A DNA stretch of 64,000 nucleotides from Candidatus Poseidoniaceae archaeon (GCA_965662895.1 CBFIJH010000007.1:42346-106345), one strand, 5' to 3'; positions 797 to 39,561 are shown, counted from the stretch's first letter. Numbers and translations: made by a program. Notes: generated by a model not told the origin, from the sequence alone.

Positions 797-882
797 TGAG
801 CATTTTCGCAACAGAGTTGGACAACCTTCTAAACCGATGTGAAACCGTGTGTGTATGAACGGTGTACTAGGGAGGTGTGGAG

Positions 883-2499
883 ATGGCGGCCGAACGTAAC
901 AGAAATTTCAGGCGAATTGGGCTTCAACTCGCATTCTGGGCCGTTCTTGGAATCCTCCTCTTTACCATTCTTCAAAATTTCATCAACATTAGTCAAACCA
1001 ATCAATTGTCAGCATACGATGACGATTGGAACGACATGTCTGCGTTTCGCGAAGATATCAATGCCATGGGAGTTGAAACAAAATCTCTGGTAAGCAGCCC
1101 GCTTCTATTGGCCGACATTGAAGATCCACGAAATACCACGTTTGTCATCGCAGGTGTTGAACGAGATACGCTTTCACTTCCACAATTCGATGAAGATGGA
1201 TTCATCACAATCGCCACTGAGGATGGTTATTCACCCTCAGAGGTTGATGCAATTGTTGAGTTTGTTGATAATGGTGGTACAGTCATTGTTCTGGAAGACT
1301 TTGGTTATGCTGGAAGCATCGGAGAAGCTTACGGTGTTCGCTATTCTGGATACCAGTTGTACGATACAAACTATGTCGCTGAATTGGATTATAACTACAT
1401 CTGGATGTGTGTGCAGGCAAGTCCCTGCGGTATGAACGGAACGGTACTTGACCCCACAACAATAGAAGAACACGAACGCTGGTCTTCTGAGGTTGGCGCT
1501 CATCCATGTTCCGAGCTTGACGGCCAATCCATGACCCTTGGGGAAGCAGGGGTCTGTTCGCACCACTGGGTTCGAAGCGCAGGTGAACTGGGACGTATTG
1601 AGTACAATGCAACCTACACAATGCTGCTCAACAACGTCACTGGTCTTGAAATCGTTCCTGGAGTCCGTGGCGCCCTCAATGATGTGAATATCCGTTCTGT
1701 AACAAGCAATCAGGCTACCGTTGACGTCAATGGCGATGGTGAACTTTGGGTGAGCAACGAACAAACAAGTGAAACACCTGATCTGTGGGGGCAATTCAAC
1801 CTCTCGATTGAAGCGTGCGCCTCCACAAATTGCGATCCGGATGAAGGGGGACGCGTCTTCTTTGTCGCAGATGGTAGCGCACTGATAAACGCAATCTACG
1901 ATTTTGAAGGATTCAATGCAGGAAAATACGGTGAAACAGGTAAACTCATTCCGGCAAACGACAACCGAAAGTGGGCCCTCGACGTTATCGCAGAATCCTT
2001 GATGAGCACGCTTGAAGGCGAAGAGGGCCAACCAGCAGAAAACGCCCTAGTGATATTTGACGAAAGCCGCCACCCACAGAACGCCTTACTTGCAGATTCT
2101 TACAACACGGTTTACTTCCTCTTGGTCTATTTCACCGGTGAAGGGCTTGCAATGCTTGCACTGTTTGTTGTTCTCTTTATCACGTTTGAAGCAGTTCTTC
2201 TCAAAAAGCGAGACCCGGAGCCATGGCGTCATGTTTTCAGCATCATCTATTACGGATTTGGGGATGCAAATCGTTACACCTATTATGCCAAAACGGAGAA
2301 AATACGGCAGGTATTTTTGTCAAAAGTTCGTAATCAAAACGGTTTGACCGTTGAAGAATTTCATGCCATGCCTGCCAAAGAACTCGTTGGCCTTATCCAA
2401 GATCCAGTGTTGGCGAAGTTTGCCATCGAACCTGGAAAATATTCGTTGGAACAATCGGTTGCACTCGTGAAACGAATCAAAGCATGGGGGCGAAGGTGA
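883..2499 (+). CDS. DUF4350-like membrane-anchored protein
   Basis: GGAGGTG RBS at 871-877. N-terminal TM, WNDMSAFRE, GGTVIVLEDFG, GRVFFVADGSALIN, VIFDESRH, second TM near C-terminus. Confidence 0.7.
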   Translation: MAAERNRNFRRIGLQLAFWAVLGILLFTILQNFINISQTNQLSAYDDDWNDMSAFREDINAMGVETKSLVSSPLLLADIEDPRNTTFVIAGVERDTLSLPQFDEDGFITIATEDGYSPSEVDAIVEFVDNGGTVIVLEDFGYAGSIGEAYGVRYSGYQLYDTNYVAELDYNYIWMCVQASPCGMNGTVLDPTTIEEHERWSSEVGAHPCSELDGQSMTLGEAGVCSHHWVRSAGELGRIEYNATYTMLLNNVTGLEIVPGVRGALNDVNIRSVTSNQATVDVNGDGELWVSNEQTSETPDLWGQFNLSIEACASTNCDPDEGGRVFFVADGSALINAIYDFEGFNAGKYGETGKLIPANDNRKWALDVIAESLMSTLEGEEGQPAENALVIFDESRHPQNALLADSYNTVYFLLVYFTGEGLAMLALFVVLFITFEAVLLKKRDPEPWRHVFSIIYYGFGDANRYTYYAKTEKIRQVFLSKVRNQNGLTVEEFHAMPAKELVGLIQDPVLAKFAIEPGKYSLEQSVALVKRIKAWGRR

Positions 2500-2504
2500 G
2501 TCAC

Positions 2505-3758
2505 ATGTGGACGCGAAAAGCATCGTTTACTTTTACTGGTGGTATTGCACTCATTCTCATTGGGATGATGATTTCCAACAACCAAATGATGATTCTTGGT
2601 TTAACACTCATCACCTTCATTGTCGTAAATTCATGGGTTTCCGGCCATGGCGATATCGAAGTACAACGCACACTTTCTGCAGATAACTTGTACAAAGGTG
2701 ATGATTTGTACGTTGAGTTGCTTGTCACCAACCGATCGAATCGCCGAACCCAACTCTTGGATGTTTACGACAACATTCCTCACGAAATGAAGTTGCGTAG
2801 TGGATTGAATCAAATGCGGCTCAATTTGCGTCCCGGAGAGAGTGCTCGAATCCGATACGTGTTGCGTTGTCCACTTCGTGGACATTACTCGATTGGTCCT
2901 GTTTCTCTTCGAGTTCGCAACACCTTCAATCTCGGAGTTGAGGACATGTACGTTGACCATCATTCCGATATCGTCATCTTCCCTCAAATCAAAGAAGTCG
3001 AGGAAGCGTTCCTTCGCTCACGTACACCTAAAATGTACACTGGAGCAACAACGCTTCGAACACCAGGACAAGGGTCAGAATTTTATTCGCTGAGAGAATA
3101 CGTACCTGGTGATCCGTTCAAAAACATCAACTGGAAGGCCTTTGCTCGAACTGGTGACTTAATGGTCAATGAAAAATGTCGAGATGCGGTAACTGATCTT
3201 TACATCCTTCTTGATTCCAGAGACGTTGCCCGCATCGGAACCGTTCTCAAGAATCCACTCGAGATGGGAACGGTAAGCGCTGCAAGTCTTGCAGCATTTT
3301 TCCTCAAGCGACGAGATAGCGTCGCTCTCGGAATCTATGGCGACGGTCTCGCTTATTTGCCACCCGATACCGGTGACAAGCAGTATTTCAAAATCCTAAG
3401 TTCACTTGCTGGCGTAAAGCCAGAGGGAAGTATGCCACTGCAAGCCGTTACCAATTCGCTCAGTGGACGTTTCAGCCGAGGTAGTCCGGTGTTTGTTATT
3501 TCATCCTGTGAAGGGGATGGAACGGTTCCTGCAGCAGTACGTGATCTTGTTGGTCGAGGTCATGAAGTAACTGTCCTATCGCCATCAAGCATTGATTTTG
3601 AACGACTTGTTTCTCGGATACCGCGTATGTCCTACGAAGTCCTGAAGTTGGAACGACAAAACCGTTTGACGACGCTTGCAGGTTCTGGAGCGCAGGTCAT
3701 TGATTGGATGCCAGATATGGATCTATCACAAGCGATTATGCAGGTAAGGGGGTATTAG
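2505..3758 (+). CDS. DUF58 domain protein (MoxR-associated, VWA-like)
   Basis: CPLRGHYSIGP, GQGSEFYSLREYVPGDPFKNINWKAFAR, ILLDSR, RRDSVAL. AGGTGA RBS before ATG 2505. Confidence 0.9.
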   Translation: MWTRKASFTFTGGIALILIGMMISNNQMMILGLTLITFIVVNSWVSGHGDIEVQRTLSADNLYKGDDLYVELLVTNRSNRRTQLLDVYDNIPHEMKLRSGLNQMRLNLRPGESARIRYVLRCPLRGHYSIGPVSLRVRNTFNLGVEDMYVDHHSDIVIFPQIKEVEEAFLRSRTPKMYTGATTLRTPGQGSEFYSLREYVPGDPFKNINWKAFARTGDLMVNEKCRDAVTDLYILLDSRDVARIGTVLKNPLEMGTVSAASLAAFFLKRRDSVALGIYGDGLAYLPPDTGDKQYFKILSSLAGVKPEGSMPLQAVTNSLSGRFSRGSPVFVISSCEGDGTVPAAVRDLVGRGHEVTVLSPSSIDFERLVSRIPRMSYEVLKLERQNRLTTLAGSGAQVIDWMPDMDLSQAIMQVRGY

Positions 3759-4961
3759 ATGGCTGGTGAAGTTGATCCACAAAGCGATGTTTCCCTCATG
3801 GGAGGACGCACCCGAACTCTGCACCTCAAAACATTGCGCAAGCAATGGCAAATCATCACGCTCCAAGTCGTCTCAACGATTGCACTGGTCTGGATGTATT
3901 TGGAAGTCGTCTCCACCTATGTTGTTGGAAGTATTGACCACACCATGTTGTTTGAATCATTGGAAACAGCCGTCGGTGAGGTGCCAATTGGAGATTGGTT
4001 AATCGGTTCAGGCCGCACGGGACTCGCTCGATTCTATGTTCCTATCGTGTTGGGACTTGGACTTGGTGGTTCAATGGCGCTTCTTGCTTTCCAATCACCA
4101 CGCGTTCAACAACGAATCAAACTTGGATTTATCGTTACACTCATGCTTCTCCTGATTGGACGACTCGTCCTTACGTGGATTCCTTCAATGCTCTTTTCAT
4201 TGGACCTACGTGCACCGACAGAGAGCGAACTGAAGACTCTTGAATGGCCGCTTTTGATGATTCTTTCATTGATGATTTTGTTCATCTATCTGTTGCCCGT
4301 CATCATGGGAACCCGTGGAATTTGGGGCCTCTCACGCCGCTCCATCGGATGGGCGATTGGATTCACCTTGCTCTTCTTGGGTATCCATGCTATCCTGACC
4401 TTCCCTCTCATCAAATCACAACTCGGAGATTGGGGCTCGAATTTGATATCGTTGGAATCACAAGTGAGTGATCCGACCGTCGGCCTTTTTGGATTCGACT
4501 TAGTGACTCCTGAACAATTTTCACTCATCTTGATTGCAGTGCTGATTATGGTGTTTCAAGAATCAGGATTCGGTGTCATCCGCTATCTCGAGTACGCGTA
4601 TCGCCTTCCAGAGTCTTGCAAGAGAGATCCTGAATACGTACGACAAATGGACAACGTCCTCAACGGTCATCTCCGTCACACAGCTGGTTTTCTAACCATC
4701 ACAGGCATCGTGACGACGGTTGCACTCGGCTTCCATAGTGTCCTTCTCGAGGTGGTTCGAACCTCAACAGGCAGTCAATGGGCGGCGCAAGTATCCGAGT
4801 CGATTGAACTGTCGTTGACGTATGGGTTGGTCATTTCTGCACTTCTTTTCCTCAGTCTTATTGCTCTACTGAGGTTCTTTGTTCCTTGGCAGAGGGTATG
4901 GGGTCTTATCGAATCCTTTAGCAACAATGCACCCGAACCTGTGAAAGAAAAAGAATTCTAA
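3759..4961 (+). CDS. Multi-pass membrane protein, unknown function
   Basis: 400 aa with about 8 hydrophobic segments. ATG directly follows the DUF58 stop codon. Confidence 0.75.
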   Translation: MAGEVDPQSDVSLMGGRTRTLHLKTLRKQWQIITLQVVSTIALVWMYLEVVSTYVVGSIDHTMLFESLETAVGEVPIGDWLIGSGRTGLARFYVPIVLGLGLGGSMALLAFQSPRVQQRIKLGFIVTLMLLLIGRLVLTWIPSMLFSLDLRAPTESELKTLEWPLLMILSLMILFIYLLPVIMGTRGIWGLSRRSIGWAIGFTLLFLGIHAILTFPLIKSQLGDWGSNLISLESQVSDPTVGLFGFDLVTPEQFSLILIAVLIMVFQESGFGVIRYLEYAYRLPESCKRDPEYVRQMDNVLNGHLRHTAGFLTITGIVTTVALGFHSVLLEVVRTSTGSQWAAQVSESIELSLTYGLVISALLFLSLIALLRFFVPWQRVWGLIESFSNNAPEPVKEKEF

Positions 4962-5198
4962 TCACGCTCGTGTTCGAATCGACTGAATCGTTCTTCCGAA
5001 CAACTCGTTGAGAATCAACATACTCAATACGAGTCCAATTGACGAAAGCCATTGATACAATGTTGAATCGATGTTTGACCAAGCATACTGATTGAGAAAA
5101 ACAAATCCTATGATGGACAAAAGGAAGACCAACTTTTCAAGAAAAATTGGGTAAGAGGAACCTTTCGATTCATTGCGCATGAGAAGTGTTTCAACCAT
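4962..5198 (-). CDS. Small two-TM membrane protein
   Basis: 78 aa, two hydrophobic helices. GAGGTGG RBS overlaps the upstream gene's stop. Confidence 0.65.
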   Translation of the reverse strand: MVETLLMRNESKGSSYPIFLEKLVFLLSIIGFVFLNQYAWSNIDSTLYQWLSSIGLVLSMLILNELFGRTIQSIRTRA

Positions 5199-5207
5199 GC
5201 TTCCACC

Positions 5208-8200
5208 TCAGAAATCCAATTCAGAAAGTTGGTCATGCAAGGCTTCGAGTCGGGGGTCTGGTTTTGCTTCTTCTGCGTCAGGCACCCGTAATTGACGTTC
5301 CGCATCCAATCGAGCCAACTCGGCTTCAAGGTCGGCACGATCTTCTTGCATTGGCGTGGCTTCGACTTGTTCGCCTTCTGTTTCAAGAGGTTCTGAATCA
5401 GAGGGTGCTGGCATCGCTTCCCATTCCTCAGAAAGTTCTGAAACAGTTGGTTCTGAATCCAGCGACACGCTTTCCTCGACCACCAAGGTAGGTTGAATGG
5501 TTTCCATCATATCATCCATGACTGGGGTCCGTTGACCGACGGGTATTGAAGTGCGTTCAAACGGTAAGAAACCGTCTCGTTGGAAATCCCACATCGCTCC
5601 ACGTGGTATTCCCCGAGTTAATCCAGAGGCATCGATTTGCGTCAACAGTTCTTCAAGAACCTGTGCTGTCTGTTCAAGCGCAATTGCTTCGCCAGCATCG
5701 CGTTGGTCAGCTTCGAGATAAATGTCATCGAGTGCAACACGTATGAGTCGTCGCGTTTCAACAGCAACACTTGGTAACGCTTCAGGTCGCATGCAATTCA
5801 TTCGAAGCGCCTCGATTTCTTCAGGTGGAGCACCAAGGTCTCCAAGTTGATCAAGGACGTTTCGCATGCGTCGCAACATGGTAATTGAACGATCATAATC
5901 TTCCAGGATTCCCTCCAAATCGAGAATCAGGTGACCAACGGTCTCACCGAGTTGGTTTTCCAGTCGCTGTTGTACCGACCATCGTGCCAATCCTCGAACT
6001 GCGCCTGCAGTCTGTGGAACTTGGCGTTCGAGCAACGTCATCACCTCACTGCTGAGCAAATGACGAGGTGTAGCAGCAATATGGTCGACTGTGGACTGAA
6101 CGACCTGTAGGGCTCGTTCAACAGCACGATCGAGAAGGACAACCGAATAACCAAGCGTACGTGCATGTTCAAGACGCTCAAGTACGGGTCCCAAACCTCG
6201 GAAGGTCGCATCATCATTGAGCAATGCTTGAGCAAGAGGCTCTTCTGACAATCTTGCACGCAGACGTTCCGCTTCGGCAATGTCTGAAACGGCTTCTTCA
6301 TGCGCTTCAGTGAGAGCCTCAGCGCGAGCGATGAGCCCAGAAAGTTCAGTTTCTGCATTGCCTCGGCGAGCTCCAAGATTGCCAAGTTCGGTAAGCAACT
6401 CTTTCCGCTCACCCATTAACTCCCGCAGTTCAGCATGGAGTTGCATTCGCCGTGCCTCATCTTCTGCGAGACGTTGACGTTCTTCCTCAGCCCGTTGACG
6501 ACTTGACAAGGTTTCTGCTTCAATTTGGTCCAACCGTGCCTGTGCAGTTCGGATCTTTTCTTCTGAAGCATTGCTCTTTGATTGGGCGCTTGCTTGTCGT
6601 TCCCTCAGGGTTGCAACTTGTTCCTCAAGTGTTCGCAATCGTCGTTCCTCAAGCTCGATTTGTTCTCGAATTGACGACAACTGTTGTGCGTTGGACTCTA
6701 AGTCTGCACGAGTTGTTGCTTCCTGATTTGACAGCGCTTCAAGTTCATCTCGAAGTGCAGCACTGCTTTGCGTATCTCCAAGCGCCTTTGCTAATTCTGT
6801 TGCACGCTCACTGAGTTGGTGCTCCAGTTCACTCACCCTACGTAGCAAACGATCAGCACGTGCTTCAGCTTGCTCCATCCGTGTTCTTGATTCAGAAACC
6901 GTCACTTGTACTCGGTTGAGTTCGTCGTTTTTCGACTGAATGGCAACGGTTTGGTCTCCAGAAGACTGTTTGACTTCCTCGAGCCGAACCATTGCTTCAG
7001 TTCGCTCTTTTTCAGCATCCTGAAGTTGAGTGGTTAAGCTCGCATTTGCGCGCATTAATGAGTCAGCTCGACGCTCGGATTCCTCCAGCCTTCGTCGTAA
7101 TCCTGAATCAACCGCTGCAAGCGGAGCAGAGTTTGGTAGCGGTTGAGATGTTTCTTGCCCACCGACATGAATGCGTAGTTTTGCTCGAACGGCTCGAACA
7201 TCATCAAGACCAATTTCAAAACCATACATGCTCATCAATCGATGCATCATAGAAGTTCTGCGCTTTTCGGAACGAGTACGTACAGTGGACAGTTGTTCTA
7301 CAAATTGTTTGAGTGTAAATTCGGAAACATCACCGGTTGAAGCGGAAATCATCGTCCCAGAGGCCAGTCGATGCAACTTCAACACACGCTTGCTTTCCGT
7401 CAATCCAAGCATTGCTTCCTCGAACGATTGTCCGTTCGCTGCCAGTGCTACTGGAAGACCGTTGTTCAATGCAAGTGAGACCGCCTTGTCGCTGACACCT
7501 GCTTTGAGATGACCAGTAACTCGATCTTCAAGTGCTGCAGAAAGCATAGACATGACGGCATCTGAGCCGCCCTTTCCCTCTCGAAGAATGAAACCGTCAG
7601 GCAGTGATGCTTCACCCTCGGCATATGTTCCTATTTCTCCATCAAGTTTGGCGGCTACATCGGACAACAAGCGTGCATGATTCGCATCAAGCTCCGTCCA
7701 TATCGCTAACACGATGGTGCTGCTTGAGGCGATAAGTAAAGACGCATCTCCCATATTCAACGATGCGTAACCTTGACCATCTCCTCCGAGCGTCTCATGC
7801 TGTGCATTCATTGCATCCGAGAGCGAGGCAACAGTTGCAGCGAGGTCTTCAGCAGATCCTGGTAACTCACCCATGCTATCGATGACAATTCCTTGATCAG
7901 CGGCGAGACCTCCACGTACGTGCTCGTAATCAGAGAGCGCTTGAAGAACTGCAGATAAGTTTCGGGCGAAGAGGCGATCTGTCAATGCGCCTCCAGAACC
8001 GAGTCCCTGTGCATCTGCTTGGAACTCAAAGGCTTCTGGTAGAAGTTTTGCAAGCTCAGCCAAGCCATGCATTGAGCATGTTGAGGCAACCAAACGATGT
8101 TGGTTTTTCTCAGCCTCTTCAAGCGCTTCTCGAGCGTCAGCGCCGCCGAGTAGTTTGGTTGCGCTCGTCCCTTCACAAATCCAACCAACAATCCTTCCAG

Positions 8201-8339
8201 CACGAACCAATCGGTGTCCGAAGGGGGTTTTTCGTCGGCCAACCCATGTTGTGATGTACCCATGTTCAAAAGGCTGGAGTCCTCCAGATGCAACATCCAC
8301 TTCATCGTCGAATCGCTCAATATGTGGTAAATCAAACAT
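5208..8339 (-). CDS. Large protein with PATAN/DUF2226-like and Roadblock/LC7-like N-terminal domains and a long coiled coil
   Basis: 1043 aa. Roadblock-like segment GLAADQGIVIDSM...AEDLAATVASL...VLAIWTELDANHARL. E/R/A/L heptad region about aa 410-700. Acidic tail. No Walker A motif. GAGGAG RBS. Confidence 0.7.
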   Translation of the reverse strand: MFDLPHIERFDDEVDVASGGLQPFEHGYITTWVGRRKTPFGHRLVRAGRIVGWICEGTSATKLLGGADAREALEEAEKNQHRLVASTCSMHGLAELAKLLPEAFEFQADAQGLGSGGALTDRLFARNLSAVLQALSDYEHVRGGLAADQGIVIDSMGELPGSAEDLAATVASLSDAMNAQHETLGGDGQGYASLNMGDASLLIASSSTIVLAIWTELDANHARLLSDVAAKLDGEIGTYAEGEASLPDGFILREGKGGSDAVMSMLSAALEDRVTGHLKAGVSDKAVSLALNNGLPVALAANGQSFEEAMLGLTESKRVLKLHRLASGTMISASTGDVSEFTLKQFVEQLSTVRTRSEKRRTSMMHRLMSMYGFEIGLDDVRAVRAKLRIHVGGQETSQPLPNSAPLAAVDSGLRRRLEESERRADSLMRANASLTTQLQDAEKERTEAMVRLEEVKQSSGDQTVAIQSKNDELNRVQVTVSESRTRMEQAEARADRLLRRVSELEHQLSERATELAKALGDTQSSAALRDELEALSNQEATTRADLESNAQQLSSIREQIELEERRLRTLEEQVATLRERQASAQSKSNASEEKIRTAQARLDQIEAETLSSRQRAEEERQRLAEDEARRMQLHAELRELMGERKELLTELGNLGARRGNAETELSGLIARAEALTEAHEEAVSDIAEAERLRARLSEEPLAQALLNDDATFRGLGPVLERLEHARTLGYSVVLLDRAVERALQVVQSTVDHIAATPRHLLSSEVMTLLERQVPQTAGAVRGLARWSVQQRLENQLGETVGHLILDLEGILEDYDRSITMLRRMRNVLDQLGDLGAPPEEIEALRMNCMRPEALPSVAVETRRLIRVALDDIYLEADQRDAGEAIALEQTAQVLEELLTQIDASGLTRGIPRGAMWDFQRDGFLPFERTSIPVGQRTPVMDDMMETIQPTLVVEESVSLDSEPTVSELSEEWEAMPAPSDSEPLETEGEQVEATPMQEDRADLEAELARLDAERQLRVPDAEEAKPDPRLEALHDQLSELDF

Positions 8340-8680
8340 TATATCTCCTCATTTTGTTTTGAATTCCAATCGTTACGCAGCCGTTCAAGTTCGTAACGCC
8401 AGGTGCCCATTTTCCCATCTTTGCCAGAGAGGTGGACGAAAACATCGTAGTCAAACCGATCAAAAAGGGTCAATCGTCGCCCTTCACTCCAAACTTCAAA
8501 CAGCGTGCCGAGTTTGAGTTCTTCTGCAACTGCACAACATTCTGCCCATTCGCGTCGTTGTTCCCCAGCAGTCTCGGGCCATTTCTTCGTGGTCTGAACA
8601 ACACCGCCAAACTGATCCATCACGCGGACGTGATTCACACCATTGAGTTCGCAAAGTTGAGAAAACAACGTCTCCAACAT
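8339..8680 (-). CDS. Roadblock/LC7 (MglB)-like protein
   Basis: 113 aa, LETLFSQLCELNGVNHVRVMDQFGGVV...AEELKLGTL...GKMGTWRYELERL fits the Roadblock helix/strand pattern. TAATG stop/start overlap with the downstream gene. Alternative start 8713. Confidence 0.65.
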   Translation of the reverse strand: MLETLFSQLCELNGVNHVRVMDQFGGVVQTTKKWPETAGEQRREWAECCAVAEELKLGTLFEVWSEGRRLTLFDRFDYDVFVHLSGKDGKMGTWRYELERLRNDWNSKQNEEI

Positions 8681-8713
8681 CTTAGCCCAAACCTCTTCAC
8701 AGCAACGTACCAT

Positions 8714-8962
8714 TCAAGAACTTTGCCGAAACTCTTCCCCCGTAGGGGGATTTGGTGATGAAAATCAAATTTCCAACTGCAAAATTTCAATCATTGCTGC
8801 GCGGAGGCGTTAGCACCGTAGATTTTCCGCGCATTACTGGCATCGAGAAAGCCCTTACGTAAATAAAAAATCCAATTAAAAAATTTAAAATCTAATTGCA
8901 ATTTTGAAATACAATCAAAACCCAATCGGAGGCGTTTAATGGAGGTGTTGTAACCCTCGACC
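8714..8962. promoter_or_regulatory. Divergent intergenic region with a very AT-rich core and flanking repeats
   Basis: A/T-rich tract 8861-8920. CGGAGGCGTT at 8802-8811 and 8927-8936. Inverted repeats 8736-8750 and 8798-8833. Confidence 0.5.
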
Positions 8963-9958
8963 ATGGCCGAGCCTATCCAGAGTCCCTTCCAAGCACCTGC
9001 TTGCGATGTGTGCGGCAAGGATGCTGTCGTCGAACAGGCCTATTCTGGGCGTATTTTATGCGGGCATCACCTCGAAAAGTCCATTCGAAAGAAAGTTGGC
9101 AAAGAATTGCGTAAGCAACTTGTTCTGGACAAATCGCAACCGACGACGGTTTTTGTTGCGATTTCTGGTGGGAAAGATTCAGCAGTTCTTCTGACGCTTC
9201 TCGTTGATCTCATCGGGATGCGTCGAGATGTCCGTATTGTTGCTGGTTGCGTTGATGAAGGAATCGATGGCTATCGCCCACCATCTCTCCAGTGTGCCAT
9301 CGATCTTTGTGAAACTCTAGATGTTGAATTCATTTCCACCAGTTACGAAGATCTCGATTTTCACCAGATGGACGAAGTAGTCAAGCGATTACCAATGATT
9401 TCAGAGAAGAAAGATGGCGCATCGACGATGCCTTGCTCGTATTGTGGAGTTTTCCGTCGGCAAGGTATCAATGCGCTTGCTCAACAAGTCGGCGCTGATG
9501 TGGTTGCGCTCGGTCACAATTTGGATGATATGGCCCAAACAGTTCTCATGAATATGACAAATGGAGATATTGAGCGAACGTTACGTCTAGCGCCACACAC
9601 CGATGCTCCAGTCAACGGGCTGCCACCAAGGATTGTTCCTTTACGTTGGATTCCCGAGCAAGAGATTCACCTGCTTGCGATGCACAAACAACTCCCGCTT
9701 CATCATGAAGAGTGTCCTTACGCACAAGGAGCCCTACGATGGCGATACCGGGACATTGTCGCACAACTTGAGCAGGATGTACCTGGGACGCGCCACAGTT
9801 TGGTCCGGATGTCGGACAACATCAAGACCGTTGCCCGTCAAGAGGTTCCACCCGTCCAAACGCATCCAACGAAATGCGAACGGTGTGGTTCACCAACATC
9901 AGGATCAACGTGCAAAGCTTGCGACATGCGAGATCTTCTCGATGTCGCCTCAGAGTAG
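8963..9958 (+). CDS. tRNA 2-thiolation protein, TtuA/Ncs6 (TIGR00269-like) family
   Basis: N-terminal CxxC zinc finger, PP-loop SGGKDS, CSYCGVFRR, GHNLDD, CPYA, C-terminal CxxC...CxxC. Confidence 0.9.
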   Translation: MAEPIQSPFQAPACDVCGKDAVVEQAYSGRILCGHHLEKSIRKKVGKELRKQLVLDKSQPTTVFVAISGGKDSAVLLTLLVDLIGMRRDVRIVAGCVDEGIDGYRPPSLQCAIDLCETLDVEFISTSYEDLDFHQMDEVVKRLPMISEKKDGASTMPCSYCGVFRRQGINALAQQVGADVVALGHNLDDMAQTVLMNMTNGDIERTLRLAPHTDAPVNGLPPRIVPLRWIPEQEIHLLAMHKQLPLHHEECPYAQGALRWRYRDIVAQLEQDVPGTRHSLVRMSDNIKTVARQEVPPVQTHPTKCERCGSPTSGSTCKACDMRDLLDVASE

Positions 9959-11478: not shown

Positions 11479-13242
11479 ATGCTCTGGGGCGATGTCGATG
11501 AGGCGATACAAGCCGAGCGTTTGGTTCGAATTCAGAGAATCGAGCGATTGAGTACCATTTGCGCCTTATTTTGTCTCAGTGGAGCGGTTTGGCTGGCTTG
11601 GCCAGTACTCAAGGATGCATTTGTTGGTGATGCGAGCCTCCTTACTGGGCTTGGAATGCCAGTCCTTGTTCTACTTTGGGGCATTGTCATACAGGACCTC
11701 ATTCTCGATGATCCTCGAGCTCGCACACGAATCGGAGCGGCTTCAAGCATCATCTGGCCAGTATTTCTTGTGTTTGCCTTGCGGTCCTATTCAACAAATC
11801 CGACCGATCTTCTCGCAATGGTTCTCTTCGCAGCATTGGGTTTTGCAACGTACCAATCGTCAGCAAACACGCTCCGCGGTGGAATCGATGTTATGCGGTT
11901 CCGAGCGATGATGACGGGTCTTGGTGCACTAACAGTGCTTGGTGTGCTTGTAGGCGACCGAGCAGGTCGAACGTGGATTGTTGAGCCTGAAGATTGGGCT
12001 CACCCTATCTTGTGCCTTGTGATACTTCTTCACGTGGGATATCTTTGGATTGCGGGCGATGATATGCGAGAAGAACGGAAAGCCTTCCGCCAAGAACTCG
12101 ATATCATTGAGAATCGATTGCTCGTTTTGCGATCTGAAGGAGCCGCTGTTGATCAGGCCAGTAGCCTTGTCATGACGGCAAAGGAGGAAGGCCACATCGA
12201 CCCGTCATTCGGTATGCGTCTCCTTCGTGAGGCAACCGAAGACATAGAGCGTTCGTTATCCCTTGCTACGGACGTCGATGTTGTGCGAGGTGAAGCCCTT
12301 CTCGTCATTCAGCACGCTGAAGAATTGGCACCTCTCGCCAAGCGTCCACGTAAGTCTTACGAAATGGGAGAACGAGAAGCTTCTCTAGGTTCTCTGCGGG
12401 AAGCGGAAGGACTCTTTCGTCAAGCGAAGCGAAGAGCGCAAGAAATCGTTACCTGGTGGGAGCAAGCAGAAGAAGCCATCCAAACAGCGGACGAACTACT
12501 CACCGGCAAATCCGGCGCAACCATCGACAATTTGCGTCAAATCATTCGCGACGCACGAAAGCAACTTGACCGGGAGGCACCAAAGAAGGCATTCGAACTT
12601 GCATGTGTGATCCCGATTCAATTGCAAGCAGATGGTGATGCTCGTGAGCGTGCAGTTGAAGTTTTGAGCGATGCAGCAAAAGCACTCAAAGCAACAGATG
12701 GATTCGACACCAATGAACTTGAAAAGCGCCTTGAGCAGGCAGAATCAGCGCTCGAAGCGGGTGATACAGGTCAATCGATTGGCCTTGCAGAGGGGGTTCT
12801 TCGCGTGATTCAAATTGAACGCGAATCCATGGAGACGGTCCGTCGCGCACTCCGCCAACGCAAGAAGATCACAGAGCGATTTGAACATTTTACTGATGCC
12901 GAAGAATGGATGGCTCGATTTAAACAGGTTCAGAACGCAGCGGATGAGCGGGAATGGAGTCATGCGGCAACGTTGCTTGAACGTTTAACCATCGACCTCG
13001 ATGCACTCGGTAGCGAACAAGACGAAGCACAGGCATTGCTTGATTTCGTTCGCCAAGAATGGGCAGTCTTGCGAAACCAATGCAATGCTTCGAGCATACC
13101 GGTTTCGGATGAGGATATGAGACAAACTGAGGCGGCAGTTTCCCTCGCAGAAGAATATCTCACGAAAGGCCAGGTTGAAGCATCCCTCAAGCAACTTGGT
13201 CAAGCCGATGCTTCGATGGAACGACTTCGAAGGCGAGTTTAA
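11479..13242 (+). CDS. Membrane protein (about 6 N-terminal TMs) with long helical-repeat C-terminal region
   Basis: 587 aa. Hydrophobic aa 25-190, followed by A/E/R/L-rich helices. Confidence 0.75.
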   Translation: MLWGDVDEAIQAERLVRIQRIERLSTICALFCLSGAVWLAWPVLKDAFVGDASLLTGLGMPVLVLLWGIVIQDLILDDPRARTRIGAASSIIWPVFLVFALRSYSTNPTDLLAMVLFAALGFATYQSSANTLRGGIDVMRFRAMMTGLGALTVLGVLVGDRAGRTWIVEPEDWAHPILCLVILLHVGYLWIAGDDMREERKAFRQELDIIENRLLVLRSEGAAVDQASSLVMTAKEEGHIDPSFGMRLLREATEDIERSLSLATDVDVVRGEALLVIQHAEELAPLAKRPRKSYEMGEREASLGSLREAEGLFRQAKRRAQEIVTWWEQAEEAIQTADELLTGKSGATIDNLRQIIRDARKQLDREAPKKAFELACVIPIQLQADGDARERAVEVLSDAAKALKATDGFDTNELEKRLEQAESALEAGDTGQSIGLAEGVLRVIQIERESMETVRRALRQRKKITERFEHFTDAEEWMARFKQVQNAADEREWSHAATLLERLTIDLDALGSEQDEAQALLDFVRQEWAVLRNQCNASSIPVSDEDMRQTEAAVSLAEEYLTKGQVEASLKQLGQADASMERLRRRV

Positions 13243-15801
13243 TCAAACCAAACCACGTTGAGCAAGGTTGTCGATGTCCAATCCACTCGGTAATCCAAGG
13301 TCAACAGGCATACCTGCAATGGTTACAACAATTCCATAGAGGTGAAGATAAAGCCCATGCGGGGGTTGATTTTCTGCGTCAAATGGAATCTTTTTCCATA
13401 CTTTTGACTTCATGTAATGATTTGCAACGGATTCCTCCTTTGAGTGAACAATCCATACATTTGCTTGACTTGCATGCTTTTTCGCTGCTGTCGAACCGAG
13501 CCGAGGTGAAACGTGGACGGTGTGAAGGATCGGCCAATTACGCACCCAATCGCCTTCAGAATCGATGAGCATCGTCATCTTGGTTGGTTCGGTTGCCATA
13601 GAATCGAGCAGTCCGAGTTCATTCAGAATCCGAATCAATGACCGAACATGGGGGTGGCGAGGTTCCTTTGTTCGTAACTCTCGTCCGATTCGGACTGCAG
13701 TGTTCGGTCGATTGGCATCCAAGTGCAACAAGGCAGCAACAACTCGACCTTGCGCCCACGATGTTGACGGTAACTTTGAATCGTCTTCATGTTGTTTCAT
13801 GAACGATTCAAGCATGGAAAGTGCCTCCTCACTGCGGCCCTCCAAACGCATGCGTGCACAATCTCCGAGGAGAATGAGTCGATCTGCGGGTTTGTTGCGA
13901 TATTTTCGATTGCTTCGTGGATTTCCTTCAGAGGTACGCTTCAACAAATCGATGTTTCTACGCATTAAGGGATCAACGCCCAAGACCGGTTGCGAGGCAT
14001 CTGGAACAACACGTTTCGGGTCAAGAACAGCAGCAAACCATTGCAAACGTGCTGCCTCAATATCGCTCTTGTTAAGGAGTGCAAGGCGAGGCGCTGCTTC
14101 GGGTAGGTCGCGTTGACACAAGCTTGCAGCAGCGAGAATCAATCGGGCAACTTGGGCATCTCTCCCTGCCTGCAAAGCCAACAAGGAGACAGCATTTTCT
14201 TCGGCCTCTTCCCAACGATTCATCCCTGCATAAAGTTGCATCTTTGCATTTGTTTGTCGAAGCAAATCGAGTCCTTGTGTTGAGGCCTCAGAGGGGTTCA
14301 AAATCTCATCGTAGAATTCAATCGCTTTTGTCCACCGATCCTTTGCGATAAGTTCCGTGAAAGGTCGTTGTTTGAGATAAATCATATCCTCCATTTGTGT
14401 AAGCATTTGTCGTTGTTCACTGATGCTTGCATCAAACGAGATGTCATCAAGTTTTGAACCAACTTGCAATGAAGTCAACCAAACGAGAAGGAAACAAACT
14501 TGACCACCAGATGCTAACATCCACGTTAGTTCCTCCATCGCATCCTTTTCGACATAGGTACACAATGTTCCTTCCCAGTCACCGCAAGCAGCACCCTGGG
14601 GAAGGAAACTTGAATCCCAGAAGGTGATCATGGCAAGTGCCAAGAGAAGCATCGACTGTCCAGCAAATCCAGTGAAGCAGAAGTTCAGAACTTTTGCTTG
14701 CTGACTTCGCTCTGCTCGCAGCAAACGGCTGTCTGCGAGCCGGATACCACCTCGGCCCGATACATCTTGAACATCAAGGAACAAGATACGAGCAACTTCG
14801 TAAACGAAAAGAAAACCAACCAAGGCGACGTTCAGCAACAAGAACAGGAGAATCGAGGTAACCAACGGTACGCGTAAGCCAGGGTCGGGAATATTGGAGA
14901 ACAATTCGATGAGAAAGAACCCAAGGATACCACCTTCTTCCATGATGGTTGCTTGCTCTCGGTATTCAGGCAACGCAATGACTTGGTCAGAGTGCGTAAA
15001 CAATTCTGGAGATACGATGATTGCAATGAGGGATAACAAGGTGTTGATCGCAACAACGGGCATGGCTATGGTGTTGAGATGAACAATTCGAGCAATGACT
15101 TGCTGTCGGGCGTTTGGCGAATGATTGTGAAACGGTGATGGATTTCCTTTCGCAATTTGAGAAGATGATTGACGCAGTGCCTGCCATGATGTTCCCATGA
15201 CGCGGCCATATGCAACAATCGATGGGGAGAAGGCAACGAGAAGCGTGATGCTCAATCGGTGCGTGAATGCAATATCCCACGTGCCGAGAATTGAATACAA
15301 AAATCCAACACCAATGAACCAACATAGAGTCAGTGCGATGTAGGCTGTGTTGCGAGCACTGCTCGAAACCTGCAGTTTTGCTTTCCCGTGACCAATCGGT
15401 TTGATGATTTGCGCACCAAGAGAGGAACCGGATGAAATCACTGCTGGAAGGATGATGAGAATCAAAGCAAGTGAGATGTTTGGAGCATGAAACCCATCGC
15501 TCCATCCTTGTGCATAGATGATGTATTCAAAGAACAACAACAATGCGCCAGTAAGTGCAAAAAGATAGGTTGCAACACCAAACCGCATACCTCGACTACG
15601 AAGGAGATCACGTGCTTCACTGAAGGAATCTGTGACCGTGTGGACTTCGTATCGTTTCGGTCCGGTTTCAAACGCGACTTGCAGCCCACGCAATTGACGG
15701 GGAACAACGGTTCTCCAGAACAAGAGCGCAATCACGGCTGCAAGAAGAAGGGGAACTGTGGCAATTGAGGCAAAGCCCTCAACAATCACTGGTCCACTCA
15801 T
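13243..15801 (-). CDS. Large polytopic membrane protein with TPR-like C-terminal region
   Basis: 852 aa. About 9-10 hydrophobic segments in the N-terminal half, helical repeat-like C-terminal half. Confidence 0.75.
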   Translation of the reverse strand: MSGPVIVEGFASIATVPLLLAAVIALLFWRTVVPRQLRGLQVAFETGPKRYEVHTVTDSFSEARDLLRSRGMRFGVATYLFALTGALLLFFEYIIYAQGWSDGFHAPNISLALILIILPAVISSGSSLGAQIIKPIGHGKAKLQVSSSARNTAYIALTLCWFIGVGFLYSILGTWDIAFTHRLSITLLVAFSPSIVAYGRVMGTSWQALRQSSSQIAKGNPSPFHNHSPNARQQVIARIVHLNTIAMPVVAINTLLSLIAIIVSPELFTHSDQVIALPEYREQATIMEEGGILGFFLIELFSNIPDPGLRVPLVTSILLFLLLNVALVGFLFVYEVARILFLDVQDVSGRGGIRLADSRLLRAERSQQAKVLNFCFTGFAGQSMLLLALAMITFWDSSFLPQGAACGDWEGTLCTYVEKDAMEELTWMLASGGQVCFLLVWLTSLQVGSKLDDISFDASISEQRQMLTQMEDMIYLKQRPFTELIAKDRWTKAIEFYDEILNPSEASTQGLDLLRQTNAKMQLYAGMNRWEEAEENAVSLLALQAGRDAQVARLILAAASLCQRDLPEAAPRLALLNKSDIEAARLQWFAAVLDPKRVVPDASQPVLGVDPLMRRNIDLLKRTSEGNPRSNRKYRNKPADRLILLGDCARMRLEGRSEEALSMLESFMKQHEDDSKLPSTSWAQGRVVAALLHLDANRPNTAVRIGRELRTKEPRHPHVRSLIRILNELGLLDSMATEPTKMTMLIDSEGDWVRNWPILHTVHVSPRLGSTAAKKHASQANVWIVHSKEESVANHYMKSKVWKKIPFDAENQPPHGLYLHLYGIVVTIAGMPVDLGLPSGLDIDNLAQRGLV

Positions 15802-37204: not shown

Positions 37205-38215
37205 ATGCAGGACGAGGTGATGCCGACCTTTCTTGGGCTCGACCAAGGCCAAGGCGATGTCGACATCGCAATTCTCTCCTTGGCGTACGAATTGACAACA
37301 TCCTACGGCCAAGGGACTGCTATGGGGCCTCAGGCCTGCCTTGAAGCCTCAGCGCAAGTGGAACTCTACGATGCAGATCTGGGCGAAGATCTTCCTGCTG
37401 GGCTTTCAATTCACACCATTCAGCCTTGGAATGGCGAAGGACCAACACTGCTTCAGCAGTTGGATTCTATGGTCGATTACCTCACACCGTGGTTCAAGGG
37501 GGATTGCTTCCCGCTTTGCTTGGGTGGAGAGCACGGCATTTTGCCACCGATCATGGAAGCCGTACGGCGCCATCCTCTTGTGAACAACGATCTTTCCAAC
37601 CTGACCGTTGTCCAAATCGATGCACACGGTGATCTTCGTGAACATTTGGACGGTGAGAAGTATTCTCACGCTTGCGCTGCCGCCCGTGCTCTTGATGCAG
37701 GAATTGGGTCGCTGCTTCAGGTTGGCATCCGTGCTTACAGCAAAAAAGAACACGAACGGATGCTTACAGACGAACGAATTACCACATTCTTCGCTAAGGA
37801 CACACAATCACCGTGCCATGGATTACATCACTGGAATCAATGGCTTGAAACGCTTTCTTCAATCGAAGGGCCTGTTCATCTCACCATCGACATCGATGGT
37901 CTTGATGGAGCATTGGTTCCAGCAACAGGAACTCCAGTTCCTGGTGGGCTGACATTCTGGCAGGTGCACGAAACCATTCAAGCCTTGTTCAACGCACCTA
38001 ATGCTGTCGTGGTCAGTGCGGATGTGAACGAAATTGGTGTTCAAGAAGATTCACCCCTCACTCAATTCACAGCAGCGATGCTGGCAACAAATGTCGTCGC
38101 AGCACATGCTTCTGCACGTCGTAGGGGTGCATGGAATCCTATGGCACCAACGTCTGGACCGCAGCGTTCGGTTCATGATTCCAGTGGATTCTTCCAATCG
38201 AATGGAGGTCCGTGA
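37205..38215 (+). CDS. speB: Agmatinase / ureohydrolase family protein
   Basis: TTSYGQGTAMGP, LGGEH, DAHGD, SHAC, QVGIR, DIDGLD, TGTPVPGG. Confidence 0.88.
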   Translation: MQDEVMPTFLGLDQGQGDVDIAILSLAYELTTSYGQGTAMGPQACLEASAQVELYDADLGEDLPAGLSIHTIQPWNGEGPTLLQQLDSMVDYLTPWFKGDCFPLCLGGEHGILPPIMEAVRRHPLVNNDLSNLTVVQIDAHGDLREHLDGEKYSHACAAARALDAGIGSLLQVGIRAYSKKEHERMLTDERITTFFAKDTQSPCHGLHHWNQWLETLSSIEGPVHLTIDIDGLDGALVPATGTPVPGGLTFWQVHETIQALFNAPNAVVVSADVNEIGVQEDSPLTQFTAAMLATNVVAAHASARRRGAWNPMAPTSGPQRSVHDSSGFFQSNGGP

Positions 38216-38602
38216 ATGAGCTTAAATGCACGTGGAAAACACATCTTCGTCGATTATTCGGAATTCTTTCCATCCTCCTCATTCGATGGAAAAAAGATGC
38301 TTGAACTGATGAAACAAGCCGTTGCAAAAAGTGGGGCAAGAGAAGTCCATGCTCACGTTGAAATCTTCGACGGTTCCGTTTCCCCGCCAGGTTTTGCGGC
38401 CGTTGTTTTGCTTGACGAGAGCCACCTTAGCGCTCACTGTTATTCGGATCAAGGTCTGCTTGCCATTGACGCCTTTACGTGCGGCGGCACCGACCCGGCC
38501 TCCATCGTTGAAGATTTGAAGCAAACGTTGTACGATTTGTCTCCATCAACGGTTATGATTCAAGAGAATAGTGTTGATCGATTCCTGCTTACGGAGGTAT
38601 GA
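38216..38602 (+). CDS. SpeD/SpeH-family pyruvoyl-dependent decarboxylase proenzyme (substrate uncertain)
   Basis: GKHIFVD, PPGFAAVVLLDESHLSAH (E|S autocleavage site), DAFTCG. Confidence 0.85.
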   Translation: MSLNARGKHIFVDYSEFFPSSSFDGKKMLELMKQAVAKSGAREVHAHVEIFDGSVSPPGFAAVVLLDESHLSAHCYSDQGLLAIDAFTCGGTDPASIVEDLKQTLYDLSPSTVMIQENSVDRFLLTEV

Positions 38603-39561
38603 ACGTGAGTATACGAAGCACGATTGAATCCTACTTCCATCATTTCAATGCTGGTGAATTGGGCAAGATGTCCGCTTCGCTCTTGAAGCACATCGATTCC
38701 GGAGGCAAGGTCTTCATCACCCTCGCTGGTGCCATGAGCACCGCAGGAATTGGACAGTTGCTTGCACCCATGATTCGAAAAGGTCACGTTGCAGCAATCA
38801 GTTGCACCGGAGCAAATCTCGAGGAAGATGTGTTTCGAATGATGGCACTGCCCCATTACGAGTCCATCGAGAACTGGAGAACCCTCTCGTTGGAAGACGA
38901 GAAAGAACTTGTCAACAAAAAAATGAATCGTGTAACGGATGTTTGCATCCCTGAGGAGCAAGCGATACGTGATTTGGAATCGCATCTCATGCAAGTTTGG
39001 AAAAAGGCATTGGATGAAAAAAAACGGCAACTTCCACATCACTACTTCTTTGATGTGCTACGCTCGGAGTCCTTTCTGAATTCGTGCGAGGGCGATGTCT
39101 CTGCTTCATGGGTCCATGCAGCTTGTGAAGCGAACATACCGGTCTATGTCCCAGGATGGGAAGATTCGACCATGGGCAACATCTTCGCTGCCCGTTCCAT
39201 TGAAGAAGCGATTGATTCCGATTGCATTCTATCAGGAATTGAGTACATGAAACACCTTGCATCATGGTACGAAGCGCAAACAATACCGCTGGCATTTTTA
39301 CAAATTGGTGGTGGAATTGCTGGAGATTTTCCCATTTGCGTTGTTCCAATGCTCAATCAAGATCTTGAGCGAGACGTTCCACTCTGGTCATGGTTTGGAC
39401 AAATTTCCGAGTCGCGTCCTTCGTATGGAGGATATTCAGGAGCACCACCAAGTGAAAAAATTACGTGGGGGAAAATCGATGCATCGACGCCAATGTTCGT
39501 GGTCGAAAGCGATGCTACGATTGTGGCCCCGCTTTTGTTTGCGTACATTTTGAACCTCTGA
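38599..39561 (+). CDS. Deoxyhypusine synthase-like protein (bacterial type)
   Basis: HFNA, LAGAMSTA, CTGANLEED, NRVTDVCIPEE, PGWEDSTMGN, GGGIAGDFPICVVP, EKITWGK (catalytic Lys), SDATIVAP. Confidence 0.9.
   Translation: MNVSIRSTIESYFHHFNAGELGKMSASLLKHIDSGGKVFITLAGAMSTAGIGQLLAPMIRKGHVAAISCTGANLEEDVFRMMALPHYESIENWRTLSLEDEKELVNKKMNRVTDVCIPEEQAIRDLESHLMQVWKKALDEKKRQLPHHYFFDVLRSESFLNSCEGDVSASWVHAACEANIPVYVPGWEDSTMGNIFAARSIEEAIDSDCILSGIEYMKHLASWYEAQTIPLAFLQIGGGIAGDFPICVVPMLNQDLERDVPLWSWFGQISESRPSYGGYSGAPPSEKITWGKIDASTPMFVVESDATIVAPLLFAYILNL

Follow-up and report, generated by a model that had tools for sequence, protein, structure and literature searches.

The locus occupies positions 4962..8680 of a 64,000-nucleotide stretch of Candidatus Poseidoniaceae archaeon (GCA_965662895.1 CBFIJH010000007.1:42346-106345), the whole of which was analysed and is called the window here. 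Three genes lie on the minus strand. The first, at 8339..8680, encodes a small free Roadblock/LC7 protein (113 amino acids plus stop), the second, at 5208..8339, a large rod protein (1043 amino acids plus stop) and the third, at 4962..5198, a 78-amino-acid protein with two transmembrane segments (2-TM). The open reading frame of the small Roadblock protein (8339-8713) has its first ATG at 8713, which would give 124 amino acids; the ATG at 8680, which gives 113, is preferred because the orthologues begin at the 'ML.RLL' position. The stop of the small gene and the ATG of the large gene overlap in TAATG (8339-8343), with one base in common. The stop of the large gene (TGA, 5208-5210) continues as GGTGGA; 9 nt past the stop, at 5198, is the ATG of the 2-TM gene. 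The three coupled genes that the sequence-only reading had described are thus confirmed in size, strand and coupling. The operon is flanked by a divergent TtuA-like PP-loop gene and by convergent orf400, DUF58 and DUF4350 genes; no kinase or GTPase was found among its neighbour genes. As the operon genes are conserved across Poseidoniales, we regard them as more than chance reading frames.

Sequence profiles and the predicted structure assign the small protein to the Roadblock/LC7 fold. Among 14 orthologues, six match Pfam Robl_LC7 (PF03259), the best with E 4.8e-7; the copy in the window gives no match at E<=1. The family profile matches the Roadblock structures 7f8m (E 8.2e-10) and 7yh1 (E 1.3e-5) and MglC (7ct3, E 5.3e-6) in the PDB. 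The AF2 model (pLDDT 89.7) has the order α-β-β-α-β-β-β-α, with helices at residues 2-10, 38-54 and 91-112 and strands at 17-22, 27-30, 62-66, 70-75 and 80-86. Foldseek returns 81 PDB matches to this model at E<=0.001, and the top ones among the matches listed are all of Roadblock type (Roadblock 7yh1 and 7f8m, MglC, MglB and LAMTOR). Profile, model and fold search agree with the earlier description of the protein as Roadblock-like. A second Roadblock paralogue is present in three genomes (G003, G012 and G017).

For the 1043-residue protein, no match in Pfam or NCBIfam passes the cut-off. Its orthologues, found across the order, are 1018-1095 residues long. The protein itself consists of a head with three domains (D1, Roadblock, D3), a coil free of proline, a strongly conserved domain peculiar to the family, an acidic linker and a conserved end peptide. 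In the AF2 model of residues 1-410, D1 (aa 1-118; 7986..8339, minus strand) is β-rich, with strands at 26-33, 39-46, 49-56 and 62-65, a helix at 66-79, a strand at 81-87 and a helix at 90-99; D3 (aa 241-345; 7305..7619, minus strand) is modelled as β-α-β-β-β-α-β over residues 250-324. Between them lies D2 (aa 119-240; 7620..7985, minus strand), for which Pfam, PDB profile, Foldseek and VIA searches point to an embedded Roadblock/LC7 domain. Robl_LC7 is matched by 8 of 14 orthologues of D2 (best E 1.2e-6), with no Pfam match to this family for the window's own copy. The D2 profile matches CvnB5 (3leq, E 3.2e-4) and LAMTOR4 (E 0.04) in the PDB. With residues 125-237, Foldseek finds 3kye (E 4.3e-6) and VIA finds 9jue_D (Z 12.1, rmsd 3.1, 111 residues aligned), 7yh1_D (Z 11.8) and a third match (Z 11.6), with 110-111 residues aligned across the three. 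Residues of approximately 125-237 are therefore predicted, by profile and modelled structure, to adopt the Roadblock/LC7 fold, close to the limits proposed at the outset (aa 128-232), and solved Roadblock chains align over this whole segment.

The two domains that flank D2 had been proposed to be PATAN- or DUF2226-like. The four motif stretches on which the proposal drew were located, two in D1 (HGYITT, aa 26-31; RAGRIVG, aa 46-52) and two in D3 (TGHLKA, aa 275-280; NNGLPVA, aa 292-298), and G27, G276, G294 and P296 are invariant among 18 orthologues. The identity of the domains was not established, and the PATAN-like label is unproven. PF14332 (PatA_N) has no match at E<=1 in 14 D1 or 14 D3 sequences, and at E<=1e-5 none of the 151 genomes scanned from the phylum carries it; when this genome was scanned at E<=1, the large gene was unmatched and the sole match was another ORF (E 0.16). 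DUF2226 (PF09987) is matched weakly by one of the 14 D1 orthologues (E 0.1), the genome scan with this family leaves the large gene unmatched, and D3 has no Pfam match. D1 and D3 show no detectable likeness to each other by hhalign (probability 0.4%). Language-model leads exist for D3 in the ESM-Atlas, to a cluster with PatA_N in 51% of its members (score 0.87, below the 0.9 line) and to one with DUF2226 in 47% (score 0.83). The fold searches used the model of residues 1-410, in which the Roadblock domain took up the matches and D1 and D3 were barely probed. The likeness to PATAN/DUF2226 proteins thus comprises the Atlas leads for D3, the one weak D1 match and a shared literature context: according to bioRxiv 10.1101/2021.06.11.447907, MglA and MglB homologues are regularly encoded beside PATAN proteins, and PATAN-REC regulators bind the pilus ATPase PilB1. 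What sets D1 and D3 apart from these proteins is the missing PF14332 match.

A coiled-coil rod follows the head, recognised by composition and heptad scan (aa ~411-700; 6240..7109, minus strand). It is heptad-like and proline-free, in keeping with the coil of about 300 residues noted earlier, and has Gly-containing breaks near residues 460, 521 and 652-661. The spacing from L498 to P701 (6237..6848, minus strand) is exactly 204 residues in all 18 aligned orthologues, down to 32% overall identity. The helical C-terminal domain (aa 701-940; 5520..6239, minus strand) is more strongly conserved than any other part of the protein, with a mean column identity of 70% (alignment A7) against 51% in the head. 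Its profile, searched against 1.84 billion representative proteins, gives 42 matches, ten of them proteins of 1020-1089 residues in which the domain has the same position, the others shorter pieces; no relative outside the large-protein family was found in this set, and no Pfam family. Against PDB sequences there is only a weak match to FliS (E 0.005). The remainder (5211..5519, minus strand) consists of an acidic, variable linker (aa 941-1000, net charge -19) followed by a conserved C-terminal helix and end peptide. The tail varies from 96 to 158 residues among 17 complete orthologues, all of which keep the end motif ..L..LE..LS[DE][LI][DE][LFM].

The large gene is present in 76 of 121 Poseidoniales genomes and was found only in this order. 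In all 76 the small Roadblock gene lies directly upstream on the same strand within 80 bp, as judged by comparing gene positions, with two of the 76 spanning contig breaks. Genera g11, g12, g14, g16, g20 and g21 yielded neither gene. In 237 Thermoplasmatota genomes from outside Poseidoniales, a profile of the head gives four weak matches, confined to the Roadblock part, and none over the full length. The small Roadblock gene and the large gene are neighbours in every case; they are coupled in translation and come and go as a unit, and the linkage foreseen for them holds across the order.

The coiled coil itself suggests one alternative identity for the large protein. Residues 417-705 match SMC and Rad50 models below threshold, the likeness being that of a long coiled coil to coiled-coil arms, and a chromosome or DNA-repair protein of this kind is nevertheless very improbable. 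The matches span the arms only (TIGR02168 of NCBIfam, 47 bits against a cut-off of 567), there is neither an ATPase head nor a hinge domain match, the head is a Roadblock module, and the net charge is negative in every region of the protein but residues 346-410. Walker A ([AG]xxxxGK[ST]) is absent from the window's copy and from 17 of 18 orthologues, the lone match being unconserved; the sequence-only reading had set SMC/Rad50 aside on this ground, rightly in our view. A second alternative concerns the third gene. The three proteins could form one membrane-tethered scaffold, in which the 2-TM protein is the dedicated anchor of the C-terminal end of the rod. The position of its gene, behind GGTGGA and so close to the stop of the large gene, is consistent with this, as is its presence directly downstream in 72 of the 76 genomes with the large gene. 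Two segments of the 78-residue protein, with approximate limits of aa 17-41 and 45-68, are hydrophobic. Its cytoplasmic N-terminal ..YP..LE.. (Y16, P17 and E21 are conserved in alignment A8) and the conserved end peptide on the acidic linker of the large protein are candidate docking elements. Against a dedicated anchor, the 2-TM family occurs in 102 of 121 genomes, among them 42 of the 59 that belong to one family (f3), and in small-genome genera without the pair the gene stays at the same locus in all six loci fetched, flanked by the TtuA-like gene on one side and the orf400/DUF58/DUF4350 genes on the other. As it is kept where the pair is missing, the membrane protein has a function that is independent of the pair. 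The earlier idea of a tether is weakened by this, and we consider a dedicated anchor unlikely.

Two further alternatives concern what the pair acts upon. Roadblock proteins of bacteria and eukaryotes act mostly on small GTPases, and the solved structural neighbours of the Poseidoniales domains include MglB, Ragulator-Rag and Mon1-Ccz1. The pair could accordingly act in the classical manner of MglB and regulate an NTPase encoded elsewhere, such as a GPN-loop GTPase or another P-loop protein, with the rod only localising it. The genome does encode one GPN-loop GTPase (PF03029, E 2.3e-51), but on another contig and unlinked to the operon. The Ras family (PF00071) is found in 0 of 121 Poseidoniales genomes at E<=1e-5. 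This genome (92% complete) gives nothing above cut-off for Ras, Roc, Arf or Gtr1, its best Ras match having E 0.019, so that the lack of an MglA-like GTPase noted for the window extends to the genome. The second Roadblock paralogue likewise has no GTPase neighbour in the two loci that were Pfam-scanned (L070 from G003 and L072 from G017). A regulator of the classical type is improbable on these data. Somewhat less improbable, though still doubtful, is that the pair acts on the archaellum or some other type IV filament machine, by positioning or regulating it: a PATAN-like head would contact a PilB-like ATPase (ArlI), as PATAN does in cyanobacteria, and the rod would set the site of the machine. 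The PilB1 binding and MglA/MglB neighbourhoods described above are in line with this, and the D3 lead to PatA_N and the FliS match of the C-terminal domain are weak pointers in the same direction. FliS, however, is a chaperone of bacterial flagellin, which is unrelated to archaellins, and the PATAN identity of the head flanks is not established. Across 21 genera, pair and archaellin are both present in 11 (g1-g8, g15, g17 and g19) and both missing in five (g11-g14 and g20). The pair occurs without archaellin in g9, g10 and g18 (archaellin in 0 of 8 genomes, one of them 98% complete), and archaellin without the pair in g16 (6 of 7 genomes) and g21 (3 of 3). The linkage of the pair to archaella is imperfect and, as related genomes are not independent, the overlap may reflect genome size only.

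The reading we prefer, and to which we give about an even chance, is that the products of the small and the large gene act as a Roadblock pair in a GTPase-independent scaffold. Roadblock domains dimerise in MglB, Ragulator and dynein LC7. By analogy, the free Roadblock protein would bind the large protein at its head, the embedded Roadblock domain being the most likely site. Through its coiled coil the large protein would dimerise to form a rod of fixed length, with the head as the regulated or regulating end, and the C-terminal domain and end peptide would hold a partner at a set distance. The 2-TM protein is probably co-transcribed and may be one docking site. The module is probably accessory, since streamlined Poseidoniales lost it. 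Complex prediction for the head (aa 1-410) with the small Roadblock protein gave a median score of 0.33 against 0.00 for the best of three controls, which is classed as 'weak support'. In calibration, 116 of 157 solved complexes passed the mark, as did 2 of 215 mismatched pairs, and passes at a score <=0.60 comprise only 18 of the 157 solved complexes and both of the mismatched pairs that passed. At least 65% of the contacts are shared between runs, with a partner pLDDT of at least 72. As Roadblock dimers have already been solved, the pass may reflect likeness to known structures. No interface was reported for this prediction, and the embedded and free Roadblock profiles align weakly by hhalign (probability 12%, E 0.0024). 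The pairing proposed in the sequence-only reading is weakly supported. Marine Group II (Poseidoniales), which are abundant ocean archaea, carry in these two genes a previously unstudied pair of a small Roadblock protein and a 1043-residue rod with a Roadblock domain of its own, and any scaffold formed by the pair would probably do without the small GTPase that Roadblock domains usually regulate.

Several known Roadblock systems resemble the pair in part. The actinobacterial conservon combines the CvnA kinase, the CvnB Roadblock protein, CvnC and the CvnD GTPase in one operon; the Poseidoniales locus differs in having no sensor kinase or GTPase neighbour. In Ragulator, the Roadblock heterodimers LAMTOR2/3 and LAMTOR4/5 form a scaffold that is held on the membrane by LAMTOR1, a small separate protein, and LAMTOR chains are among the fold matches of the Poseidoniales domains. 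Ragulator, however, serves Rag GTPases and has no coiled-coil rod, and the Poseidoniales 2-TM gene is independent of the pair. The Roadblock proteins of Asgard archaea (7yh1, 9jue and 9jq8 from Prometheoarchaeum; 7f8m from Thorarchaeota) form small dimers and give the top fold and profile matches of the Poseidoniales domains. The abstract of PMC10933270 discusses them alongside small GTPases, for example relatives of Rag and Rab; no such GTPase was found in Poseidoniales, where one of the two domains is fused to a coiled-coil rod. MglB/MglC of Myxococcus xanthus and Thermus thermophilus (6hjm, 3t1r, 1j3w and 7ct3) are likewise two Roadblock proteins encoded together, and both Poseidoniales Roadblock domains have them among their best matches by structure and profile. 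The MglA polarity module also works with long scaffold proteins at the cell pole. No MglA or Ras-like GTPase was found in the Poseidoniales genomes searched, and an MglB-type GAP function should not be assumed for the pair, in which, unlike MglB/MglC, one Roadblock is built into a 1043-residue rod with an order-specific C-terminal domain.

The two Roadblock-bearing genes and the gene downstream of them lie on the minus strand, co-directional and coupled, as the sequence-only reading had described. The small Roadblock ORF (8339–8713) is followed by the ORF of the large rod protein (5208–8339, 1043 aa) and by that of a 2-TM protein (4962–5198, 78 aa). The stop codon of the small gene shares one base with the ATG of the large gene (TAATG); GGTGGA stands directly after the stop of the large gene, with the ATG of the 2-TM gene 9 nt further on. 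Read from its first ATG, the small protein would have 124 aa; the ATG at 8680, which gives 113 aa, is the likely start, as orthologues of the gene begin at this 'ML.RLL' position. The leader of the small gene contains a short GC hairpin (8737–8749, minus strand) of five C, a three-base loop and five G, placed after the AT-rich intergenic region and ahead of the 8713/8680 start codons. Rfam gave no match at E ≤ 0.1 in 4800–9100. Neither Pfam nor NCBIfam gave a match above cut-off for any of the three proteins. The genome itself measures 1.86 Mb and is 92% complete.

The small protein is, by profile and predicted fold, a Roadblock domain. The copy in the window has no Pfam match at E ≤ 1; Robl_LC7 is matched by 6 of 14 orthologues taken across the order (best E 4.8e-7). 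The profile of these 14 sequences finds 7f8m (E 8.2e-10), MglC 7ct3 (E 5.3e-6) and 7yh1 (E 1.3e-5) in the PDB. The AlphaFold2 model (pLDDT 89.7, pTM 0.80) has the element order helix, two strands, helix, three strands, helix, and its best PDB matches in Foldseek are chains of Asgard Roadblocks, MglC, MglB, LAMTOR and dynein LC7. The Roadblock likeness first noticed in the sequence is thus borne out by orthologues, profile and model.

The head of the large protein (aa 1–410) is predicted to form three domains and a long helix (14-row alignment, pLDDT 77.7, pTM 0.60). The middle domain, D2 (aa ~125–237), matches 3kye at E 4.3e-6 (Foldseek, PDB) and superposes on 9jue_D with Z 12.1 (rmsd 3.1, 111 aligned), on 7yh1_D with Z 11.8 and on MglB 6hjm with Z 11.1 (VIA). 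Its segment matches Robl_LC7 in 8 of 14 orthologues (best E 1.2e-6), and the segment profile matches CvnB5 3leq at E 3.2e-4. By sequence profile and model, therefore, D2 is a Roadblock domain, and the embedded copy proposed earlier is found where it was expected. The flanking domains had been proposed as PATAN-like. The motifs on which that proposal was built are present in D1 and D3, with G27, G276, G294 and P296 invariant in the orthologue alignment; the PATAN identity itself stays at the level of a proposal. PF14332 has no match at E ≤ 1 in 14 D1 or 14 D3 sequences, none on the large gene in the genome scan and, at E ≤ 1e-5, none in 151 genomes across the phylum. DUF2226 is matched by 1 of 14 D1 sequences, at E 0.1. 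D1 and D3 show no detectable likeness to each other (hhalign probability 0.4%), and the profiles of both found nothing meaningful among PDB sequences. In the fold searches with the aa 1–410 model the hits went to the Roadblock domain, which leaves no information on D1 or D3. Word-indexed searches with the D3 and head profiles returned just pieces of orthologues. ESM-Atlas places D3 near one cluster in which 51% of the members carry PatA_N (score 0.87) and another in which 47% carry DUF2226 (score 0.83), scores that by the tool's own calibration mark leads. Elsewhere in the genome, on contig 6 (51957–52190, minus strand; locus L067), a 1142-aa open frame has a weak DUF4388/PatA_N match (E 0.16, 12 bits), which is probably due to chance.

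Beyond the head, aa ~411–700 form a proline-free, heptad-like stretch by composition and heptad scan, with Gly-containing breaks near 460, 521 and 652–661. Segment lengths were measured in 18 aligned orthologues. The distance from L498 to P701 is exactly 204 residues in all 18; P701 to E928 spans 228 residues in 16 and 227 in two, and F374 to L498 spans 122–129. The tail, counted from E928, varies between 96 and 158 residues in the 17 complete orthologues. It consists of an acidic linker of variable length followed by a conserved helix and end peptide, kept in 17 of 17. The C-terminal domain (aa 701–940) is the best conserved part of the protein (70% mean column identity versus 51% for the head) and has no Pfam family. 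A search of 1.84 billion representatives with its profile gave 42 proteins at E ≤ 0.001, of which ten are 1020–1089 aa long with the domain at the same position and the other 32 (51–737 aa) are presumed fragments. ESM-Atlas gave no usable match to aa 676–940, and a weak FliS hit among PDB sequences (E 0.005) was treated as chance. A phmmer search of the whole protein against PDB sequences returned coiled-coil noise alone.

The large gene (query aa 1–400) is present in 76 of 121 Poseidoniales genomes: in 57 of 59 genomes of family f1 plus the window's own, in both of f2 and in 16 of 59 of f3. Among genomes at least 90% complete, 41 of 56 carry it. In a sample of 237 other Thermoplasmatota genomes, the head profile gave four weak matches, to the Roadblock part alone (E 1.7e-5 to 2.7e-4). 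The small Roadblock profile matches in 78 of the 121 genomes. In every one of the 76 genomes with the large gene, the small gene lies at most 80 bp upstream on the same strand, as judged by comparing place tables by hand, with two of the 76 running across contig breaks. Genera g11, g12, g14, g16, g20 and g21, with genomes of 1.3–1.6 Mb, gave no match to either gene. The Roadblock pair is also without a further paralogue in the window's genome by the family's own profiles; a weak Robl_LC7 match at ~37955–38128 is spurious. It falls inside a 336-aa ORF (37205–38215, plus strand) with arginase/agmatinase-like metal-site motifs, which we take from these motifs to be an enzyme of that family, adjoining a 320-aa ORF (38599–39561, plus strand). 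For two other large ORFs of the window, 11479–13242 (plus strand, 587 aa) and 13243–15801 (minus strand, 852 aa), Pfam gave no family at E ≤ 0.001.

The best-supported account is that of a Roadblock pair acting independently of a GTPase; the other readings considered here rank below it. That the 2-TM protein is a dedicated membrane tether for the rod is suggested by the position of its gene, which in 72 of 76 genomes is the next one downstream of the large gene; among the exceptions, it is 1.3 kb further away in G004, G100 and G061 have no match, and in G001 the contig ends. However, the 2-TM family occurs in 102 of the 121 genomes, also in genera without the pair. All six fetched loci that lack the pair retain the 2-TM gene, after a TtuA-like gene and before convergent orf400, DUF58 and DUF4350 genes, which is the order of the window minus just the two Roadblock-bearing genes. 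The pair thus behaves as a cassette, present or absent at one fixed site, on which the membrane protein does not depend; the linkage of the small and large genes is strict, and the idea of a dedicated 2-TM tether is weakened. The convergent cluster in the window (877–4961, plus strand) encodes DUF4350 (540 aa), DUF58 (424 aa) and a 400-aa protein without a Pfam match, and keeps synteny with the 2-TM and TtuA-like genes across the order even where the Roadblock pair is missing. An SMC-like role of the large protein is very unlikely: it has no Walker A, as the sequence-only reading also noted together with the coiled coil, and its matches to SMC and Rad50 arms all stay below threshold.

The pair might instead target an unlinked NTPase, since the genome holds one GPN-loop GTPase away from the pair. 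Against this, the Ras, Roc, Arf and Gtr1 families gave nothing above cut-off in the window's genome, and at E ≤ 1e-5 Ras had no match in any of the order's 121 genomes; the lack of an MglA-like GTPase, remarked on for the window, extends to the genome and the order. A weak Roc match on contig 6 was not taken for a GTPase; it falls in a 187-aa P-loop protein that is probably of the adenylate-kinase type. Some Poseidoniales carry a second, distant free Roadblock paralogue of 119–121 aa (loci L070 4954–8899 in G003, L071 in G012 and L072 5075–5925 in G017). It adjoins a GNAT acetyltransferase in G003 and G017 and, in G003, also a 730-aa Cid1-like poly(A) polymerase/TUTase-type nucleotidyltransferase; no GTPase neighbours it in L070 or L072, the two loci scanned with Pfam, and the ORFs of L071 match theirs in size and order. 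A role of the pair at the archaellum draws on a comparison with archaellin (PF01917) across 21 genera. Both are present in 11 genera (g1–g8, g15, g17 and g19) and neither in five (g11–g14 and g20), but the pair occurs without archaellin in three (g9, g10 and g18; archaellin in 0 of 8 genomes) and archaellin without the pair in two (g16, 6 of 7 genomes, and g21, 3 of 3). The overlap is real but imperfect, and genome size and kinship confound it.

For the GTPase-independent pair, the free Roadblock had been proposed to associate with the embedded one. The head (aa 1–410) was folded with the small Roadblock, with alignments for both and three controls. The median score is 0.33 versus 0.00 for the best control, a verdict of 'weak support' in a test that 116 of 157 solved complexes pass, as do 2 of 215 mismatches. 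Passes with a score of 0.60 or under are limited to 18 of these 157 complexes and include both of the mismatches. At least 65% of contacts agree between runs and the partner pLDDT is at least 72, in a prediction without a reported interface. As Roadblock dimers are solved, the pass may stem from likeness to known structures. The prediction is consistent with binding of the small protein to the head and leaves the claim of Roadblock-to-Roadblock pairing as a suggestion. Mirror-tree style distance correlations between domains are all high (0.78–0.92); they do not discriminate because relatedness drives them.

We suggest that the rod protein would dimerise and that the free Roadblock would bind its head. 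Given its fixed length, its private C-terminal domain and its end peptide, the rod is probably a spacer or scaffold and may hold a partner. A more specific version, which we think improbable, is that a GTPase-less Roadblock heterodimer caps a fixed-length coiled-coil ruler: one end would sense or be switched via the Roadblock/PATAN-like head, and the order-specific domain and docking peptide at the other would keep a machine of the cell envelope or of motility at a defined distance. If true, archaea would have a positioning device of a new kind, with Roadblock domains as a switch without nucleotide. In the surface ocean, Poseidoniales rank with the most abundant archaea; to our knowledge they have no cultured member, and their cell biology is therefore known from genomes alone. 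Literature searches on Poseidoniales Roadblocks, DUF2226 and archaeal Roadblock/coiled-coil/MglB proteins gave nothing on this family among the matches listed. If the pair is a scaffold, it would join a small number of candidate systems for structure or positioning that are specific to this group. Streamlined lineages have lost the pair cleanly from its fixed locus, and comparing them with the others is a natural way to look for its partners. The usual reading of a Roadblock domain is that it regulates a small GTPase. In the genomes of this order that were searched there is none, and still two Roadblock domains are retained along with a rod whose length does not vary and an end domain that is private and highly conserved; a scaffold role of the pair would be an example of how Roadblock modules function with no GTPase.
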